Assembly: GCF_054482525.1 (NCBI RefSeq)
Contig: NZ_JBTHVG010000003.1
Direction: 5' to 3' (one strand)
Source of the DNA: a plasmid
Length of the DNA stretch: 64,000 nt
A program made the position numbers and the translations under genes. A model generated the notes under the pieces. The model did not search any database and was not told the origin of the DNA. It saw nothing but the letters and a program-made list of their open reading frames with translations. Below are positions 18,140 through 61,034 of this stretch, piece by piece; the stretch's first letter is position 1; every line of letters starts with the position of its first letter.

Positions 18140-18545
18140 AGGGCTGCATCAGCCAGGCCCGGATATAAATACATGCTCTGCCAGGTGAGTACCACTGCCC
18201 GGTAGCCGAATGATAAGTTTTGATTTCACGGTTGCAATTTCTCCCTCTGGCATCACTGCTCCACGATGCACCCCGATCAGCTTAGCGTCTGAAAATGAAG
18301 ATGCACCGGACCTGCATGAAGCGGAACGGTGCCCAGCTGAGTGTTTGTGGGCACAATGAACCGCAATTTCATGATGGGAATGAAAGATGGCTGGTGGCCC
18401 GCTGATATGAACGCTTACCCTGCATAACGTTACTAACCACAATCTTTTCACTAAAAGAAAAAAGGGTTCCTCCGCTTTAGAGGAACCCTTTCAAAAGGTG
18501 CCGATGGCATACTAATCCACACCCTGAAAAGAGGGGGGTTGCCCC

Positions 18546-19884
18546 CATAAGCGCTAACTTAAGGGTTGTGGTATTACGCCTGATATGATTTAACGTGCCG
18601 ATGAATTACTCTCACGATAACTGGTCAGCAATTCTGGCCCATATTGGTAAGCCCGAAGAACTGGATACTTCGGCACGTAATGCCGGGGCTCTAACCCGCC
18701 GCCGCGAAATTCGTGATGCTGCAACTCTGCTACGTCTGGGGCTGGCTTACGGCCCCGGGGGGATGTCATTACGTGAAGTCACTGCATGGGCTCAGCTCCA
18801 TGACGTTGCAACATTATCTGACGTGGCTCTCCTGAAGCGGCTGCGGAATGCCGCCGACTGGTTTGGCATACTTGCCGCACAAACACTTGCTGTACGCGCC
18901 GCAGTTACGGGTTGTACAAGCGGAAAGAGATTGCGTCTTGTCGATGGAACAGCAATCAGTGCGCCCGGGGGCGGCAGCGCTGAATGGCGACTACATATGG
19001 GATATGATCCTCATACCTGTCAGTTCACTGATTTTGAGCTAACCGACAGCAGAGACGCTGAACGGCTGGACCGATTTGCGCAAACGGCAGACGAGATACG
19101 CATTGCTGACCGGGGATTCGGTTCGCGTCCCGAATGTATCCGCTCACTTGCTTTTGGAGAAGCTGATTATATCGTCCGGGTTCACTGGCGAGGATTGCGC
19201 TGGTTAACTGCAGAAGGAATGCGCTTTGACATGATGGGTTTTCTGCGCGGGCTGGATTGCGGTAAGAACGGTGAAACCACTGTAATGATAGGCAATTCAG
19301 GTAATAAAAAAGCCGGAGCTCCCTTTCCGGCACGTCTCATTGCCGTATCACTTCCTCCCGAAAAAGCATTAATCAGTAAAACCCGACTGCTCAGCGAGAA
19401 TCGTCGAAAAGGACGAGTAGTTCAGGCGGAAACGCTGGAAGCAGCGGGCCATGTGCTATTGCTAACATCATTACCGGAAGATGAATATTCAGCAGAGCAA
19501 GTGGCTGATTGTTACCGTCTGCGATGGCAAATTGAACTGGCTTTTAAGCGGCTCAAAAGTTTGCTGCACCTGGATGCTTTGCGTGCAAAGGAACCTGAAC
19601 TCGCGAAAGCGTGGATATTTGCTAATCTACTCGCCGCATTTTTAATTGACGACATAATCCAGCCATCGCTGGATTTCCCCCCCAGAAGTGCCGGATCCGA
19701 AAAGAAGAACTAACTCGTTGTGGAGAATAACAAAAATGGTCATCTGGAGCTTACAGGTGGCCATTCGTGGGACAGTATCCCTGACAGCCTACAAAACGCA
19801 ATTGAAGAACGCGAGGCATCGTCTTAACGAGGCACCGAGGCGTCGCATTCTTCAGATGGTTCAACCCTTAAGTTAGCGCTTATG
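18546..19884 (+). mobile_element. IS186 (IS4 family) insertion sequence, complete
   Basis: Terminal inverted repeats CATAAGCGCTAACTTAAGGGTTG at both ends; 11-bp direct target duplication GGGGTTGCCCC (18535-18545 and 19885-19895); inserted in a GC-rich palindrome. Confidence 0.9.
18595..19713 (+). CDS. IS186 transposase
   Basis: 372-aa ORF recognised as the IS186/IS4-family transposase, framed by the IS186 inverted repeats. Confidence 0.9.
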   Translation: MPMNYSHDNWSAILAHIGKPEELDTSARNAGALTRRREIRDAATLLRLGLAYGPGGMSLREVTAWAQLHDVATLSDVALLKRLRNAADWFGILAAQTLAVRAAVTGCTSGKRLRLVDGTAISAPGGGSAEWRLHMGYDPHTCQFTDFELTDSRDAERLDRFAQTADEIRIADRGFGSRPECIRSLAFGEADYIVRVHWRGLRWLTAEGMRFDMMGFLRGLDCGKNGETTVMIGNSGNKKAGAPFPARLIAVSLPPEKALISKTRLLSENRRKGRVVQAETLEAAGHVLLLTSLPEDEYSAEQVADCYRLRWQIELAFKRLKSLLHLDALRAKEPELAKAWIFANLLAAFLIDDIIQPSLDFPPRSAGSEKKN

Positions 19885-19907
19885 GGGGTTGCCCCCCTCT
19901 TTGTCAG

Positions 19908-20066
19908 CTACTTACCGGATTCGTAGGCCAGGATAGCAAATACCTCCCTTGTTCCGTCTTTCATCCGCAACTCGCAAAGCGAGTTTCGTGTGAGCCAGGT
20001 GAATATCAACAGCGTTAAACAAACTATTAATATGCACAAAACAATGGGTTGGTTCGGCATTTTCAT
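19908..20066 (-). CDS. hok: Hok/Gef-family type I toxin (plasmid hok/flm-like)
   Basis: [52 protein letters not shown] resembles plasmid Hok; upstream GCAAGGAGAAGAAGGCC-ATG and the overlapping mok-like start are conserved. Confidence 0.8.
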
Positions 20067-20164
20067 GGCCTTCTTCTCCTTGCATTTAAGCAGGCAAGAG
20101 GCTACGCTGTGTGTGACTAGCATACAGGGGCCTCGGGTTGTACTGACCCCAGAAAGTTGGACAG

Positions 20165-21016
20165 TTAAACACGAGGCATATAGGTCTGATTCCGATATTC
20201 AATTGGAGTCAGACCTTTTAATTTCAGGCTAATTCTTCTGCTGTTGTAGTATTCAATATATTCCGTAACAGCATCCTTCAGCTCGCTTATATTACTGAAC
20301 TCATCAAGATAAAAACACTCCGACTTTAAGGTTCCAAAGAAACACTCCACCACAGCATTATCCAGACAATTGCCTTTTCTGGACATGCTTTGTTTAATAC
20401 CATGTTCTTTAAGGATATTTTGATATCTTCTCATACGATACTGCCATCCCTGGTCAGAGTGCAGAACAGGATGCTCGTGAGGATTAAGCTTTTTGAATGC
20501 CTGATCGAGCATATTCTCGACCATGTTCATCACTGGTCTTTCCGAAAGGCTGTAAGAAATAACTTCGTTGTTGAAGAGATCTATTACTGGAGACAAATAC
20601 AGCTTGCGCCCATTGACTGCAAATTCAGTAACATCGGTAACCCACTTCTCGTTTGGCCGCGTAGCCTTGAAATCTCTTTGGAGAACATTGGGGGCGGTTT
20701 GCCCTACCTCTCCTCTGTAAGAGCGGTATCGCTTGACCTTAATCGCTGCCTTCAGTGAGAGGATTCCCATCAGGCGCTGAACAGCTTTATGGTTAATCTG
20801 TTTCCCTTCTCGATGAAGAGACAGCGTTACCCTACGGTATCCGTATCGGCCTCTATTCTCATGATAAATCTCACCAATACGCTTTTTAACGTCCGCATAC
20901 TTGTCAGGCTTGCTGAGAGCCTTTAGATGGTAATAAAACGTACTGCGCGGTATCTCCGCAGCCCTGAGAAGCTCATCAAGAGGATAAAACTGCCTTAGCT
21001 CGTTGAGTACTTTCAC
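20165..21016 (-). CDS. insK: IS150 orfB (InsK), DDE transposase domain
   Basis: 283 aa, IS3-family integrase/transposase core. Confidence 0.85.
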
Positions 21017-21534
21017 TTTTTCGTGGGATGAGCTAAGGCTTTCAGCTTTTTTAGATACACAAGCCGCGTTTCAAGAAATCGAACTTGCCTTTCAAGATCC
21101 TCAATGCGTCGGTCTTTTGACAGCTCCAATGCTGATGCCGCTTTTTCTGGATCAACTGATATTGCAATGTTTCTTTTGGTGCCAATCTTGAGCGCGCGTA
21201 AACCAGCTTCTCCGCGCTCTTCATAAACCTTCAGCCACCTGGCTACAGAACCACTACCAGCAAGCATAAAGTGAGCAGCAGCCTGATTAAGGGACATGTG
21301 CTGCTCGATCACCGCTTTCACGACCTTAATACGCAACTCAGGATCAGCACTAACACCTTTAGGTTTGGGAATTAAACCTTTTTCTCCATGTTTTTCATAG
21401 AGGGCAACCCATGTCCTGACCTGGGTTCGGGGGACACCAAAACGTGCCGAGATGATCCTGTAACCATCATCAGTAGTGAAGTAGTGATTCACGACTTCAA
21501 GGCGCTTTTCAAAAGGGTATTTTGGCTTTGACAT
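21013..21534 (-). CDS. insJ: IS150 orfA (InsJ)
   Basis: 173 aa with N-terminal HTH; overlaps orfB in the -1 frame. Confidence 0.85.
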   Translation of the reverse strand: MSKPKYPFEKRLEVVNHYFTTDDGYRIISARFGVPRTQVRTWVALYEKHGEKGLIPKPKGVSADPELRIKVVKAVIEQHMSLNQAAAHFMLAGSGSVARWLKVYEERGEAGLRALKIGTKRNIAISVDPEKAASALELSKDRRIEDLERQVRFLETRLVYLKKLKALAHPTKK

Positions 21535-21866
21535 ATCAGGGGCTATTCCATTTCATCGTCCAACAAAATGGGTGCAGTACAGGTTAATTGAAAAATTACT
21601 CGGGGCTTTCTGCTTTTACCACAGTCAAACAGTGTTACCGCTGGCTGGGGCAAAAGCCTCCAGCACCAGCGTCATTATATCACTCTGCCCTGATCAGCCA
21701 AACACCCTGCCTGCATAAATCATTGATTTATAATTTATTTGACATGAGTCACTTCCGGTTGTCGGAGACAGTCTTTTTACACTAAAGAAAAGGGTAACGG
21801 GCAGCTGCTTGGTCGGAACATACAGTGCAGTTCCTGCCCGTTTAATTTCCGGATGCAATGGTAGGA

Positions 21867-22687: not shown

Positions 22688-22969
22688 TTACTCTTTTTCC
22701 TGCATAGCGGCTTTTTCAGCCCGGGTGGCCAGGCGAGCATTTCCGAAAGGTTCACGGACAAGCAGGGGCTTCTCCTTCTTCCAGCCCCTGATAGCCGTTT
22801 CTCCAAAACGACGTGGTGCATTGCCGTTCCAGCGAGCAATCACATGATTATCATGAATTTCTATAATGACAACGGGGTGGACAATGACCGTTGTAATGGT
22901 GGTATTTCCCATTTTGGTACGGGTTACAGACCAAACCTGCATCCCGGATTCCAGCTGGCTGATTTTCAT
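22688..22969 (-). CDS. Hypothetical protein
   Basis: AGGA upstream; 93 aa; orientation matches the block. Confidence 0.35.
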   Translation of the reverse strand: MKISQLESGMQVWSVTRTKMGNTTITTVIVHPVVIIEIHDNHVIARWNGNAPRRFGETAIRGWKKEKPLLVREPFGNARLATRAEKAAMQEKE

Positions 22970-40366: not shown

Positions 40367-40663
40367 TTAATGGATGAGCGATTTATAGTCATGTGCTGAC
40401 AAATGGACATTATGTGCGCCATCATTCCATTCAAAGAATAATCGATACTTAGAGTTTACTCGAATGGAGGAATAACGGTTTGACGTCATTCTTAAGCGTT
40501 CATAACGCAAGCTGTTGGATAATAACTCCCGCTCACTCTGGACATTATCCAGCGTTTCGAGTCGACACAGAATCGCGTTAATAATTTCAGAAGGAATACC
40601 TGCCGTTGTTTTTCCATTACGGAAGAACTTTTCAAGCCGTCTGTCTTTAAATGAATGGATCAT
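40367..40663 (-). CDS. HigB-like toxin (RelE/ParE superfamily, plasmid-killer type)
   Basis: MIHSFKDRRLEKFF...GIPSE...SIRVNSKYRLFFEWNDGAHNVHLSAHDYKSLIH follows the HigB pattern MIKSFKHKGLKLLF...SITVRANWRITFQF..GDAYILNYEDYH. Confidence 0.6.
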   Translation of the reverse strand: MIHSFKDRRLEKFFRNGKTTAGIPSEIINAILCRLETLDNVQSERELLSNSLRYERLRMTSNRYSSIRVNSKYRLFFEWNDGAHNVHLSAHDYKSLIH

Positions 40664-50700: not shown

Positions 50701-50759
50701 ATCGGAGAACCACGGCAGCCTGGCGGCTGCAAATTGAAAACCGCCCCGGTTCGTCCTGT

Positions 50760-52410
50760 TGTTGCCGCACGCCCCGCAGAATATGTATGCTCTGAGGACC
50801 TGTTTTATTAAGGACTCATCCCCTTATGTTGACCCGCAAAAGTATCGATACAGTTCTGCTCTCTGTTGGTGCTGAGAAGCTCTCACAACGAGAATGGGAC
50901 TGGATGAAAATGCTCAAACCCATGGACCCACCACCTGCGATGGTGACGACCTCCATCCTGAAGCGCCGTGGCGATACAGCAGCCCTTACCCTGCTACAGG
51001 ATACCGGGGTTTAATCCATCCTCATGTTGTCCGGTTTTACTCCCCGCCCTCTGAAACGTCTGTTCACAGCCAACCAGTGCTGGACGTCCTTCCTGGATGC
51101 GGGCGGTCTGCGCGATATCGAGGTTGAAGCCGTCACCAAAATGCTGGCCTGCGGCACACGGATACTGGGTGTAAAAGAGTTCGGGTGTGATAACCCGGAC
51201 TGTCAGCACGTAAAGTACCTGACCAACTCATGCGGCAGCCGTGCCTGCCCGTCCTGCGGAAAGAAGGCCACAGACCTGTGGACAGCAACACAGCTGAATC
51301 GTCTTCCTGACTGCGACTGGGTACATCTGGTCTTCACCCTGCCGGACACGCTGTGGCCGGTGTTCGAAAGCAACCGCTGGCTGCTGAATGACGTGTGCCG
51401 TCTGGCGGTGGAGAATCTGCTGTATGCCGCCCGAAAACGGGGGCTGGAACCCGGTATCTTCTGCGCCATCCACACGTATGGCCGTCGTCTCAACTGGCAT
51501 CCGCATGTACATGTGTCTGTAACCTGTGGAGGTCTGAATAAGCATGGTCAGTGGAAAAAGCTGAGCTTCCTGAAAGACGCGATGCGTTCACGGTGGATGT
51601 GGAATATGCGGCAGCTGCTTCTGAAAGCGTGGTCAGAGGGGATGGCAATGCCGGAGTCGTTGTCACATATCACGACGGAATCACAGTGGAGAAGCCTGGT
51701 GCTGAAATCCGGCGGAAAATACTGGCATGTGTACATGTCGAAGAAGACAGCCGGAGGGCGGAATACGGCACGCTACCTGGGTCGTTATCTGAAGAAGCCA
51801 CCAATAGCGGCTTCCCGACTGGCTCATTACAACGGAGGGGCAAGCCTGAGCTTCCGTTACCTGGACCACAAAACGGGAGAAACGGCGACGGAAACGCTGA
51901 CACAGCGTGAGCTGGTCGCGAGGCTGAAACAGCACATCCCGGAGAAGTTTTTTAAGATGGTGAGGTACTTCGGGTTCCTTGCCAACCGTGTGTGTGGAGA
52001 GAAGCTGCCGCAGGTGTACCGTGCACTGGGGATGGATAAACCGGAACCAGTGGCGAAAGTGTGCTATGCACAAATGGTGAAACAGTTCCTGAGTCGTGAC
52101 CCGTTCGAATGCGTGCTGTGTGGCTGCCGGATGGTATACCGCCGGGCCATTGCGGGGCTGAATGTATCAGGGCTGAAGAAAAACGCGCGGGATATCAGTC
52201 TACTGAGGTATATGCCGGCCTGACACAGGCTAAGTGTGCCCGGGAATCGGTGAAAGTATAAAAAACAGCCTGTTACGGTATAAAAATCGACCATACAGAG
52301 AGGGAAACCACCGGAGTGGTGGGAAAAGCAGAAAGGCTCACGTGGCATAAGGCGTGGACAATGGTATCGACTGGTTTTTCAATTTCCTATACGTCAAGCC
52401 TCTTCGTCCT
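50760..52410 (+). mobile_element. IS91-family (rolling-circle) insertion element; boundaries approximate
   Basis: IS91-like transposase gene plus a putative oriIS-like end (tttttcaatttcctatacgtcaagcc, about 52373-52400); the element sits between two blocks of iteron-like repeats. Confidence 0.4.
51024..52223 (+). CDS. IS91-family transposase (HUH Y2 type)
   Basis: N-terminal Zn-binding Cys cluster CGSRACPSCGKK and HUH motif WHPHVHVSV; an in-frame TAA separates it from the upstream ORF 50826-51014, which may belong to the same gene or to an orf121-like gene. Confidence 0.7.
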   Translation: MLSGFTPRPLKRLFTANQCWTSFLDAGGLRDIEVEAVTKMLACGTRILGVKEFGCDNPDCQHVKYLTNSCGSRACPSCGKKATDLWTATQLNRLPDCDWVHLVFTLPDTLWPVFESNRWLLNDVCRLAVENLLYAARKRGLEPGIFCAIHTYGRRLNWHPHVHVSVTCGGLNKHGQWKKLSFLKDAMRSRWMWNMRQLLLKAWSEGMAMPESLSHITTESQWRSLVLKSGGKYWHVYMSKKTAGGRNTARYLGRYLKKPPIAASRLAHYNGGASLSFRYLDHKTGETATETLTQRELVARLKQHIPEKFFKMVRYFGFLANRVCGEKLPQVYRALGMDKPEPVAKVCYAQMVKQFLSRDPFECVLCGCRMVYRRAIAGLNVSGLKKNARDISLLRYMPA

Positions 52411-60110: not shown

Positions 60111-60264
60111 GGGCAAATCCATCTGATGCTCAACAGTACATTCGTTATGTTCAGAGCAATGTCTGCAATAAGTAAAGGATCCGCTAAAGAAAACCGGTCT
60201 GAAATATCGCTGATAGTCCTAGCAACACTTGGAATCGCATCACCATTCAGGTAATGACTCCAAC

Positions 60265-60768
60265 TTATTGATAGTGTTTTATGTTCAGATAATGCCCGAT
60301 GACTTTGTCATGCAGCTCCACCGATTTTGAAAACGACAGCGACTTCCGTCCCAGCCGTGCCAGGTGCTGCCTCAGATTCAGGTTATGCCGCTCAATTCGC
60401 TGCGTATATCGCTTGCTGATTACGTGCAGCTTTCCCTTCAGGCGGGATTCATACAGCGGCCAGCCATCCGTCATCCATATCACCACGTCAAAGGGTGACA
60501 GCAGGCTCATAAGACGCCCCAGCGTCGCCATAGTGCGTTCACCGAATACGTGCGCAACAACCGTCTTCCGGAGCCTGTCATACGCGTAAAACAGCCAGCG
60601 CTGGCGCGATTTAGCCCCGACGTATCCCCACTGTTCGTCCATTTCCGCGCAGACGATGACGTCACTGCCCGGCTGTATGCGCGAGGTTACCGACTGCGGC
60701 CTGAGTTTTTTAAGTGACGTAAAATCGTGTTGAGGCCAACGCCCATAATGCGGGCGGTTGCCCGGCAT
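60265..60768 (-). CDS. insB: IS1 InsB (expressed as an InsAB' frameshift fusion)
   Basis: 167-aa ORF overlapping insA. Confidence 0.85.
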
Positions 60769-60962
60769 CCAACGCCATTCATGGCCATATCAATGATTTT
60801 CTGGTGCGTACCGGGTTGAGAAGCGGTGTAAGTGAACTGCAGTTGCCATGTTTTACGGCAGTGAGAGCAGAGATAGCGCTGATGTCCGGCGGTGCTTTTG
60901 CCGTTACGCACCACTCCGTCAGTAGCTGAACAGGAGGGACAGCTGATAGAAACAGAAGCCAC
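60687..60962 (-). CDS. insA: IS1 InsA
   Basis: 91 aa with Zn-finger CPSC...CSHC. Confidence 0.85.
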
Positions 60963-61034
60963 TGGAGCACCTCAAAAACACCATCATACACTAAATCAGT
61001 AAGTTGGCAGCATCACCCACCATTCATTGTCGCA

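Follow-up and report, generated by a model that had tools for sequence, protein, structure and literature searches.

An IncHI2 plasmid hok/sok locus separated into three pieces by IS150 and IS186

The window analysed here, a 64,000-nt stretch of IncHI2 plasmid backbone (contig NZ_JBTHVG010000003.1), carries a toxin-antitoxin locus of the hok/sok type in which two insertion sequences (ISs) stand between the toxin gene and its RNA control elements. Analysis of the window and of related plasmids suggests, with a probability of about 0.8, that two separate transposition events broke an ancestral hok/sok locus into three pieces, that the resulting module is non-functional, and that the arrangement has been inherited within one IncHI2 lineage. 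IS150 lies in the hok mRNA leader, and IS186 lies in a GC-rich hairpin past the hok stop codon. The uninterrupted ancestral allele is present in related plasmids, and both insertion sites are recurrent. The 4.4-kb stretch around hok is 100% identical in many 210-390-kb IncHI2A/MOBH plasmids from E. coli, Salmonella, Citrobacter, Kluyvera and Klebsiella, and the record NZ_CP082955.1 is collinear with the whole window, apart from two IS elements that are present only in the window.

Anatomy of the interrupted locus

Deletion in silico of both IS elements, together with one copy of each target duplication, yields a reconstructed locus of 545 nt. The split hok/sok arrangement is not due to chance, because this reconstructed locus was found uninterrupted at 100% identity in other IncHI2 plasmids, for example pM160133_p1. 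Comparison of the matching plasmids revealed four states of the identical allele: intact, IS150-only, IS186-only and both. The IS150-only state is the commonest class (13 of 60 rows in an evenly spaced sample of the matches), the IS186-only state is found in pSA26-MCR-1 with position, orientation and duplication as in the window, and the double-insertion state occurs in 65 records covering at least 80% of the 4.4-kb query. R478-like IncHI2 plasmids carry an intact allele of 95.5% identity, and IncHI1 plasmids such as pHCM1 carry an intact allele of 84%. A preliminary description of this DNA, made from its letters alone, had proposed a dismembered hok locus and had pointed to related plasmids as the place to look for an IS-free arrangement; the intact allele is there, along with the two single-insertion alleles and the double one. 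An assembly chimera is very unlikely as the source of the IS elements, because more than 65 independent assemblies carry the arrangement.

The features of the locus are given below in window coordinates, with SD for Shine-Dalgarno, ORF for open reading frame and aa for amino acids.

18460-18492, minus strand: intrinsic terminator hairpin of the hok mRNA, 14-bp stem then T run (terminator scan; 3' terminal hairpin in the reconstructed fold)
18497-18508, minus strand: fbi-like 3' element GCCATCGGCACC, with predicted pairing to tac at the 5' end of the hok mRNA
18535-18545: left copy of the 11-bp IS186 target duplication GGGGTTGCCCC, left half of the GC hairpin after hok
18546-19884, plus strand: IS186, 1339 bp, complete (annotated as IS421 family in identical plasmids)
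18595-19713: IS186 transposase ORF, single transposase
19885-19895: right copy of the 11-bp duplication GGGGTTGCCCC
19908-20066, minus strand: hok toxin ORF, 52 aa, intact, ending ...AYESGK
19908-20123, minus strand: mok-like ORF, 71 aa, start codon kept (ATG at 20123), in frame with hok
20080-20108, plus strand: Sok promoter-like site TTGCAT-17-TACGCT (homology with annotated sokC through the RF01794 alignment)
20115-20138, plus strand: first ~24 nt of Sok, still joined to the Sok promoter (start near 20115 judged from sokC)
20131-20135, minus strand: mok SD CGAGG, 3 nt from the IS150 right end (RF01794 alignment and junction table)
20139-21581, minus strand: IS150, 1443 bp, complete, transcribed in the hok direction
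20165-21016, minus strand: IS150 orfB, 283 aa, intact
20170-20179, plus strand: CACGAGGCAT, a subterminal box of IS150 that repeats the mok SD box in the orientation opposite to the adjacent mok SD
20182-20216, plus strand: terminator-like hairpin facing inward within IS150, 15-bp stem then T run, predicted as a possible end of a chimeric Sok-IS150 RNA
21013-21534, minus strand: IS150 orfA, 173 aa, intact
21585-21617, plus strand: displaced 3' part of Sok, stem-loop and T run (homology with sokC/RF01794 and reconstructed Sok fold)
21585-21668, minus strand: displaced 5' 84 nt of the hok mRNA leader (RF01794 alignment of the intact allele, and fold)
21601-21606, minus strand: anti-SD/ucb GCCCCG, within the displaced leader
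21660-21667, minus strand: tac element, within the displaced leader
21674-21701, minus strand: hok promoter TTGGCT-16-TATAAT with upstream TG (promoter scan, 10/12 matches), reading into the IS150 left end

The toxin product matches the NCBIfam model NF007279 (Hok family toxin) over positions 1-52 of 52 with 122.8 bits, against a cutoff of 73. RefSeq/PGAP calls Hok as a protein of 39 aa (WP_223165953.1; 120 nt, 19908-20027); the start of this call probably lies too far downstream, because the full 52-aa ORF fits the family model end to end. The layout of the window, with mok in frame with hok, is that of K-12 mokC/hokC, whereas mok of R1 is out of frame with hok. The preliminary description had reported the hok frame and the mok-like upstream start as intact, and the full-length family match and the 71-aa in-frame ORF bear it out on both counts. 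The assignment of the mok SD and of its anti-SD partner was modelled on PMC9841398.

IS150, a member of the IS3 family, has imperfect terminal inverted repeats beginning TGTACTG and, at position 530 of the element, the frameshift motif A AAA AAG; it is 98.8% identical to K-12 IS150, and NF033516 matches its transposase at 348 bits. The element is flanked by a 3-bp duplication GGT (20136-20138 and 21582-21584), and its end lies 72 nt upstream of the hok ATG, an exact value for a distance that had earlier been put at about 70 nt, with the same duplication. IS186 has perfect inverted repeats of 23 bp and is 100% identical to K-12 IS186A, and its product is matched by NF033592 (IS4-family transposase) at 133 bits. 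The restored target of IS186 is the palindrome AAAGAGGGGGG-TTG-CCCCCCTCTTT, and the split hairpin past the hok stop reads AAAGAGGGGGG-CAA-CCCCCCTCTTT. The distance from the hok stop codon is 12 nt to the start of the 11-bp duplication and 23 nt to the end of IS186; these two values replace the '20 nt after the stop' of the preliminary description, whose account of the element, its duplication and the GC-rich palindrome stands.

The leader was analysed with Rfam RF01794, which is named 'sok' but models the hok mRNA leader as far as the hok AUG. The intact sister allele matches this model over its full length (positions 1-157) with 81.1 bits at a gathering threshold of 59, and sokC and sokE, used as positive controls, reach 118 and 84 bits; the reconstructed flanks, for which the preliminary description had proposed an alignment with known hok leaders, are thus recognised as one. 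An Rfam scan of the whole window gave no match at the gathering threshold. The leader is interrupted by IS150 at about model position 83, which explains the null, and it was rejected as evidence against hok/sok on this account. Beyond IS150, where a displaced leader had been placed at about 21585-21720, lie the leader segment and a sigma-70-type promoter that puts the mRNA start at about 21668. The Sok promoter-like site falls below the threshold of the consensus promoter scan, being too weak.

Minimum-free-energy folding of the reconstructed 415-nt mRNA joins nt 2-9 to nt 369-376, which represents the predicted tac/fbi fold-back. It also predicts a stem of the anti-SD GCCCCG and the mok SD CGAGGC that encloses a small hairpin, as well as the GC hairpin past the hok stop codon (RNA structures here and below are minimum-free-energy and partition-function predictions). 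The tac, fbi, anti-SD and SD elements have been described for R1 hok, in which C74 and A106 are opposite bases of the anti-SD/SD stem (PMC9841398). IS150 lies between ...GCCCCG-AGTAATTTTTCAATTAACC and CGAGGCCCC-TGT-ATG. Its site is the 3' foot of the inner hairpin and falls precisely where the anti-SD hairpin gives way to the mok SD; the anti-SD hairpin doubles as the Sok terminator on the opposite strand. In the window, the partners of the tac/fbi pair and those of the anti-SD/SD pair sit on different fragments, and IS186 leaves the fbi element and the terminator 1.3 kb from hok.

Recurrence of the two insertion sites

The window-type IS186 junction was found in 160 plasmids, and the junction with IS186 in the opposite orientation, built in silico, was found at 100% identity in 155 plasmids. 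Direct inspection of pEC129_1 revealed the inverted IS186 with an identical 11-bp duplication. Since both orientations are present with the same duplication, comparison of the junctions indicates that IS186 has hit the IncHI2 hok hairpin at least twice independently. On an IncF/IncI plasmid, IS186 was also found in a GGGG..CCCC hairpin unrelated to this one, which fits a preference for structure or sequence that is not specific to hok. IS186 favours GC-rich palindromes of the type GGGG(N6-7)CCCC in either orientation, with variable duplications of about 10 bp, and the target in the window, GGGG-GGTTGCC-CCCC, agrees with this consensus. In the known precedent for such targeting the site is a promoter, unlike the toxin-mRNA hairpin occupied here.

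The IS150 site is shared by a second element. The R478-like IncHI2 allele carries a 94.4%-identical element that agrees with IS150 of the window in its insertion nucleotide, its orientation and its duplication (ACC). This element is ISKpn8, a different member of the IS150 group, at least 99.9% identical to copies on Klebsiella/Raoultella IncF plasmids, and because of this match it is most simply explained as an event separate from that of IS150 in the window. All 11 of the 11 IS150/ISKpn8 copies sampled on other plasmids lie at a hok locus with the transposase directed toward hok; nine are on IncF plasmids and one (L019) is on another IncHI2 plasmid, and most have an annotated Hok coding sequence directly downstream. 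In L012, L014 and L019 the hok side is broken by a further IS, and leader sequence still abuts the element. R1-type hok shows distinct events, with a CCA duplication, with TTC 12 nt upstream and, in one case, with an adjacent deletion; further distinct events of the IS150 group were found in the Klebsiella IncF hok and in a srnB-like locus, and all of them lie inside the anti-SD/SD palindrome. Events of this group in at least five hok families fall within about 12 nt, mostly within 4 nt, and the plasmid insertions at this spot always have one orientation. The right end of an IS150-group element is joined to a hok leader in 873 of the 1410 plasmids holding a near-complete element.

A de novo laboratory insertion of IS150 in sokC has been reported at REL606 coordinate 16,972 (PMC5419217), and this position is the ACC directly 5' of the mokC SD, homologous to the duplicated triplet of the window. 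The hokC coordinate alone was used from that paper; those for hokE (582,237) and mokB (1,272,468) were rejected, as they fall in REL606 cusA and chaB and the table columns as extracted are unreliable.

Two further arrangements were noted among these loci. In L009, from the IncF plasmid NZ_CP020519.1 (1432-3042), the left junction of IS150 lies at about +6 of an R1-type hok mRNA and the right junction lies in the hairpin; about 90 nt of leader are absent, a sign of either an adjacent deletion or a second event. In many R478-like IncHI2 plasmids, such as pIMPIncH12_334kb (L005, 2417-3272), another segment has taken the place of the hok promoter, the leader, sok and the start of mok; it extends to 14 nt before the hok ATG and has a relBE type II toxin-antitoxin pair at its end. 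This replacement is a third, IS-independent loss of the hok control region.

Analysis of the IS150 right end revealed that the box CACGAGGCAT sits 31-41 nt from the tip, falls in the last codons of orfB (as GCCTCGTG), and matches the R1-type mok SD box at 10 of 10 positions (p about 0.007 by shuffling). Comparison of the hok leader with the IS150 ends gave several short matches (p 0.007-0.025 over 20 tests), a similarity that is suggestive, not decisive, as a targeting cue. The predicted partners of the box are the mok SD in a read-through RNA and the 5' arm of Sok in a chimeric Sok RNA. The flank is unlike the inverted-repeat tip of IS150, which leaves targeting of inverted-repeat-like sequences in the manner of IS911 unsupported.

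In species-representative genomes, two more Enterobacterales elements among the matches listed (L095 and L138) abut hok leaders; the divergent L138 element has another subterminal sequence, GGCCTCGGT, which is the exact complement of its own hok flank ACCGAGGCC. Two other proteobacterial copies among these matches (L079 and L137) lie away from hok. Relatives in Streptococcus, Clostridia, Alistipes and Leptotrichia, with OrfB about 50% identical, keep the 25-nt right-end tip of IS150 exactly and have no SD box, and in five of them tblastn placed the matched end at the true right end. Among the matches listed, a T5 run occurs within 25 nt in 43% of 118 unique right-end flanks of these relatives, compared with 6.9% of control windows, and in one Alistipes metagenome-assembled genome most copies abut the same GGAGGTGGCTAA...TTAGTCACCTCC palindrome. 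The T-run enrichment hints at insertion near terminator-like hairpins, and insertion beside hairpins or terminators may be a habit of the whole group; empty-site reconstruction for four complete Firmicutes elements gave no clear target hairpins.

Functional outcome and rival explanations

In the reading that we favour, IS150 inserted with a 3-bp duplication and severed the hok promoter, tac and the anti-SD from mok/hok; the same insertion cut the Sok gene after about 24 nt, leaving the rest of Sok beyond the element. mok and hok keep their SDs and start codons without a promoter of their own. IS186 inserted with an 11-bp duplication into the GGGG..CCCC hairpin past the hok stop, detaching fbi and the terminator, and the double-IS arrangement would then have been passed on within one successful IncHI2 lineage. 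Hok RNA could arise only by read-through across IS150, from the hok promoter or from IS150 itself, and such RNA would have its mok SD masked by subterminal sequence of IS150; a chimeric Sok-IS150 RNA may still be produced. In the modelled read-through RNA, the probability that the mok SD is unpaired is 0.00, and its partner is GCCUCG from the IS150 right end (complement of 20170-20179). The modelled Sok-IS150 chimera, running from 20115 to about 20226, leaves 15 nt at its 5' end free as a tail that can pair with the mok start and has a stem made with the IS150 box, followed by a strong hairpin and T run at 20182-20216. The masking of the mok SD and the chimeric Sok are computational leads only. 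A promoter scan at the IS150 right end revealed no hybrid outward promoter.

Post-segregational killing requires a stable, locked and slowly processed pool of mRNA that rests on tac/fbi (PMC9841398), and it also requires that Sok be unstable. Because mok/hok have been parted from tac, from fbi and from the 3' domain of Sok, the module most probably does not function, and the hok/sok locus of the window is very probably dead as a killer module. It is reasonable to expect the toxin to be silent, or expressed only through IS150 read-through. Several observations weigh against this. The hok promoter and IS150 transcription are both directed toward hok, and a terminator scan of the hok strand between the IS150/hok promoter and hok found none. 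Since the hok and mok ORFs and both SDs are intact, as is the Sok promoter, and all match the uninterrupted allele at 100% identity, residual hok/sok activity of the locus is possible. The high frequency of IS-bearing alleles could also reflect hitch-hiking with successful resistance plasmids instead of a benefit.

The same features could be taken to mean that the locus is rewired, not dead, with an fbi-less mok/hok read-through RNA under the control of a chimeric Sok-IS150 RNA and a modified toxin-antitoxin activity, such as killing on plasmid loss or phage exclusion. This would make use of the intact ORFs, SDs and Sok promoter, of the transcription of IS150 toward an ORF with no terminator found on its strand, and of the free 5' tail against the mok start, stem and strong terminator hairpin that the predicted chimera retains. 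However, the predicted read-through RNA has its mok SD fully paired, killing depends on the tac/fbi lock (PMC9841398) and tac and fbi now lie in other fragments, and K-12 loci with the same insertions are regarded as inactive, according to the account of Pedersen & Gerdes 1999 given in PMC11551753. We consider a rewired activity quite unlikely and favour loss of function. It is extremely improbable that the IS-flanked hok block was imported by recombination from a chromosomal IS-disrupted hok locus, although K-12-type chromosomes do have hok loci beside an identical IS186 and a near-identical IS150. The toxin that reaches 122.8 bits with the general Hok model scores 52.4 bits with the HokA model, under that model's cutoff of 89, and import is effectively refuted by the clean 3-bp and 11-bp duplications, by the intact allele of the plasmid itself, which removal of the IS elements restores base for base, and by a leader region that is about 76% identical to the K-12 sokC/hokC region.

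The clustering of the IS150-group events admits more than one explanation. It could be a matter of survivorship, not of target preference, if only those insertions were viable that cut hok from its promoter and spared the 5' domain of Sok. Loss of Sok without loss of hok is lethal (PMC9841398), the observed site spares the Sok promoter and the 5' tail, and the lone case in the opposite orientation, K-12 hokA, also lacks the mok SD region and a clean duplication. On such a view, however, insertions anywhere from the hok promoter to the end of Sok, or within hok, should be viable too, and yet those observed crowd into about 12 nt, mostly 4 nt, across at least five hok families, and two different IS species are found at the identical nucleotide; the flanks of the Firmicutes relatives are also non-random, with the T5 run at 43% against 6.9% in controls. 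These points make survivorship alone unlikely. A tentative proposal, which we put forward with considerable doubt, is that the proteobacterial elements of the IS150 group are specialised for hok/sok leaders, that their insertion rebuilds an anti-SD hairpin and a Sok-like RNA, and that hok/sok loci serve them as safe landing pads. The landing site would be the 3' foot of the anti-SD/Sok-terminator hairpin, entered in one orientation, and the right end of the element would supply an inverted mok SD box and an inward-facing terminator. The toxin would thereby be disarmed without the killing that loss of Sok would trigger, and the hok/sok modules of conjugative plasmids would act as vehicles for these elements. 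Similarity to the SD box might also guide the choice of target.

If function is lost, as favoured here, the IncHI2 resistance backbone, which has spread globally, carries one annotated 'addiction' module that probably does not work, with the majority of plasmids that carry this hok allele affected, and scoring 'hok present' by the ORF alone overcounts working systems. The data connect scattered reports on K-12 hok loci, on natural sokE::IS150 insertions and on evolution experiments. They suggest that the IS150 group and IS186 each have a preferred structural target in hok/sok RNA control regions, and that IS150 may neutralise the toxin on arrival. If true, IS150 would offer a clear example of how a transposable element can become adapted to a toxin-antitoxin locus, and this would help to explain the frequent decayed look of hok loci.

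Other features of the window lie outside the hok/sok locus. The annotation of the collinear record includes a RelE/ParE-family type II toxin gene at about 40367-40663 (minus strand), so the backbone retains other candidate addiction modules despite the disruption of hok/sok. A 93-aa hypothetical protein at 22688-22969 (minus strand) carries the PLSDB-distributed RGI label 'Brucella suis mprF, defensin resistance, identity 100%', which looks spurious because the protein is so small. At 50707-52394 there is a 1688-bp insertion that is absent from NZ_CP082955.1; its 399-aa ORF (51024-52223) is a candidate IS91-family (IS1294-like) transposase, judged by size and an N-terminal Cys-rich motif. A 768-bp IS1 at 60250-61017, with the ends GGTAATGACTCC... 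and ...GGCAGCATCACC and a 9-bp duplication CACCATTCA, is likewise absent from that record.

Relation to known hok/sok loci

The functional prototypes of the locus are R1 hok/sok (parB), F flm and srnB, with which the window shares the promoter, tac, anti-SD (ucb), Sok target hairpin, mok, hok, GC hairpin, fbi and terminator. Compared with these prototypes the window is diverged in sequence, the 84% IncHI1 allele being the only close relative among the matches listed, and its module is dismembered. IS1397 and ISKpn1, which belong to the IS3 family, insert specifically into palindromic units (REP/BIME); their targeting of hairpin palindromes is analogous to the position of IS150/ISKpn8 in the anti-SD/SD palindrome, although the palindrome differs.

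Insertions of IS150 at hok loci have been reported several times. An identical sokE::IS150 insertion is present in more than 400 natural E. coli isolates (PMC11551753), repeated new IS150 insertions arose beside hokC, hokE and mokB in an evolution experiment (PMC5419217), and hok/sok homologues lie near hot spots of mobile-element insertion in E. coli and K. pneumoniae (bioRxiv 10.1101/527788). The sokE and evolution-experiment cases are chromosomal, whereas the locus in the window is plasmid-borne, and the fixed orientation of IS150 and the SD-box copy are not described in these papers. A literature search found no description of the IncHI2 hok locus as IS-disrupted, which does not prove that it is unpublished.

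The closest counterparts are the IS-disrupted hok loci of K-12, described by Pedersen & Gerdes 1999 (Mol Microbiol 32:1090) as cited in PMC11551753. The single IS150 copy of K-12 lies in sokA/mokA. As in the window, IS150 in hokA/sokA sits in the leader at the hairpin foot past the AGCCCC anti-SD box, sok is split and the hok ORF is intact. Unlike the window, the locus is chromosomal, the IS is reversed and a clean 3-bp duplication is absent; mok has lost its SD and its start, with 32 nt left upstream of the hokA ATG, whereas in the window mok is intact and the insertion is clean. IS186A lies 19 nt past the hokC stop and IS186B lies 18 nt past the hokE stop, both in the homologous GC hairpin (hokC, GGCGGGGAGTGATCCCCGCC, that is, GGCGGGGA..TCCCCGCC; hokE, GCGGGGAGTAATCCCCGC). 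The hokC (gef) and hokE loci thus resemble the window in having a 100% identical IS186 18-23 nt past the stop, in the first GC-rich hairpin, with hok cut from its 3' end; they differ from it as chromosomal paralogues with one IS each, whereas the window has both IS types in one plasmid locus. The window shows the hallmarks of IS-inactivated hok loci, namely an IS beside the ORF, separated regulatory RNA elements and an IS-free allele in relatives. The kind of disruption is therefore already known from K-12, and what is new is the plasmid-borne, doubly hit IncHI2 case.

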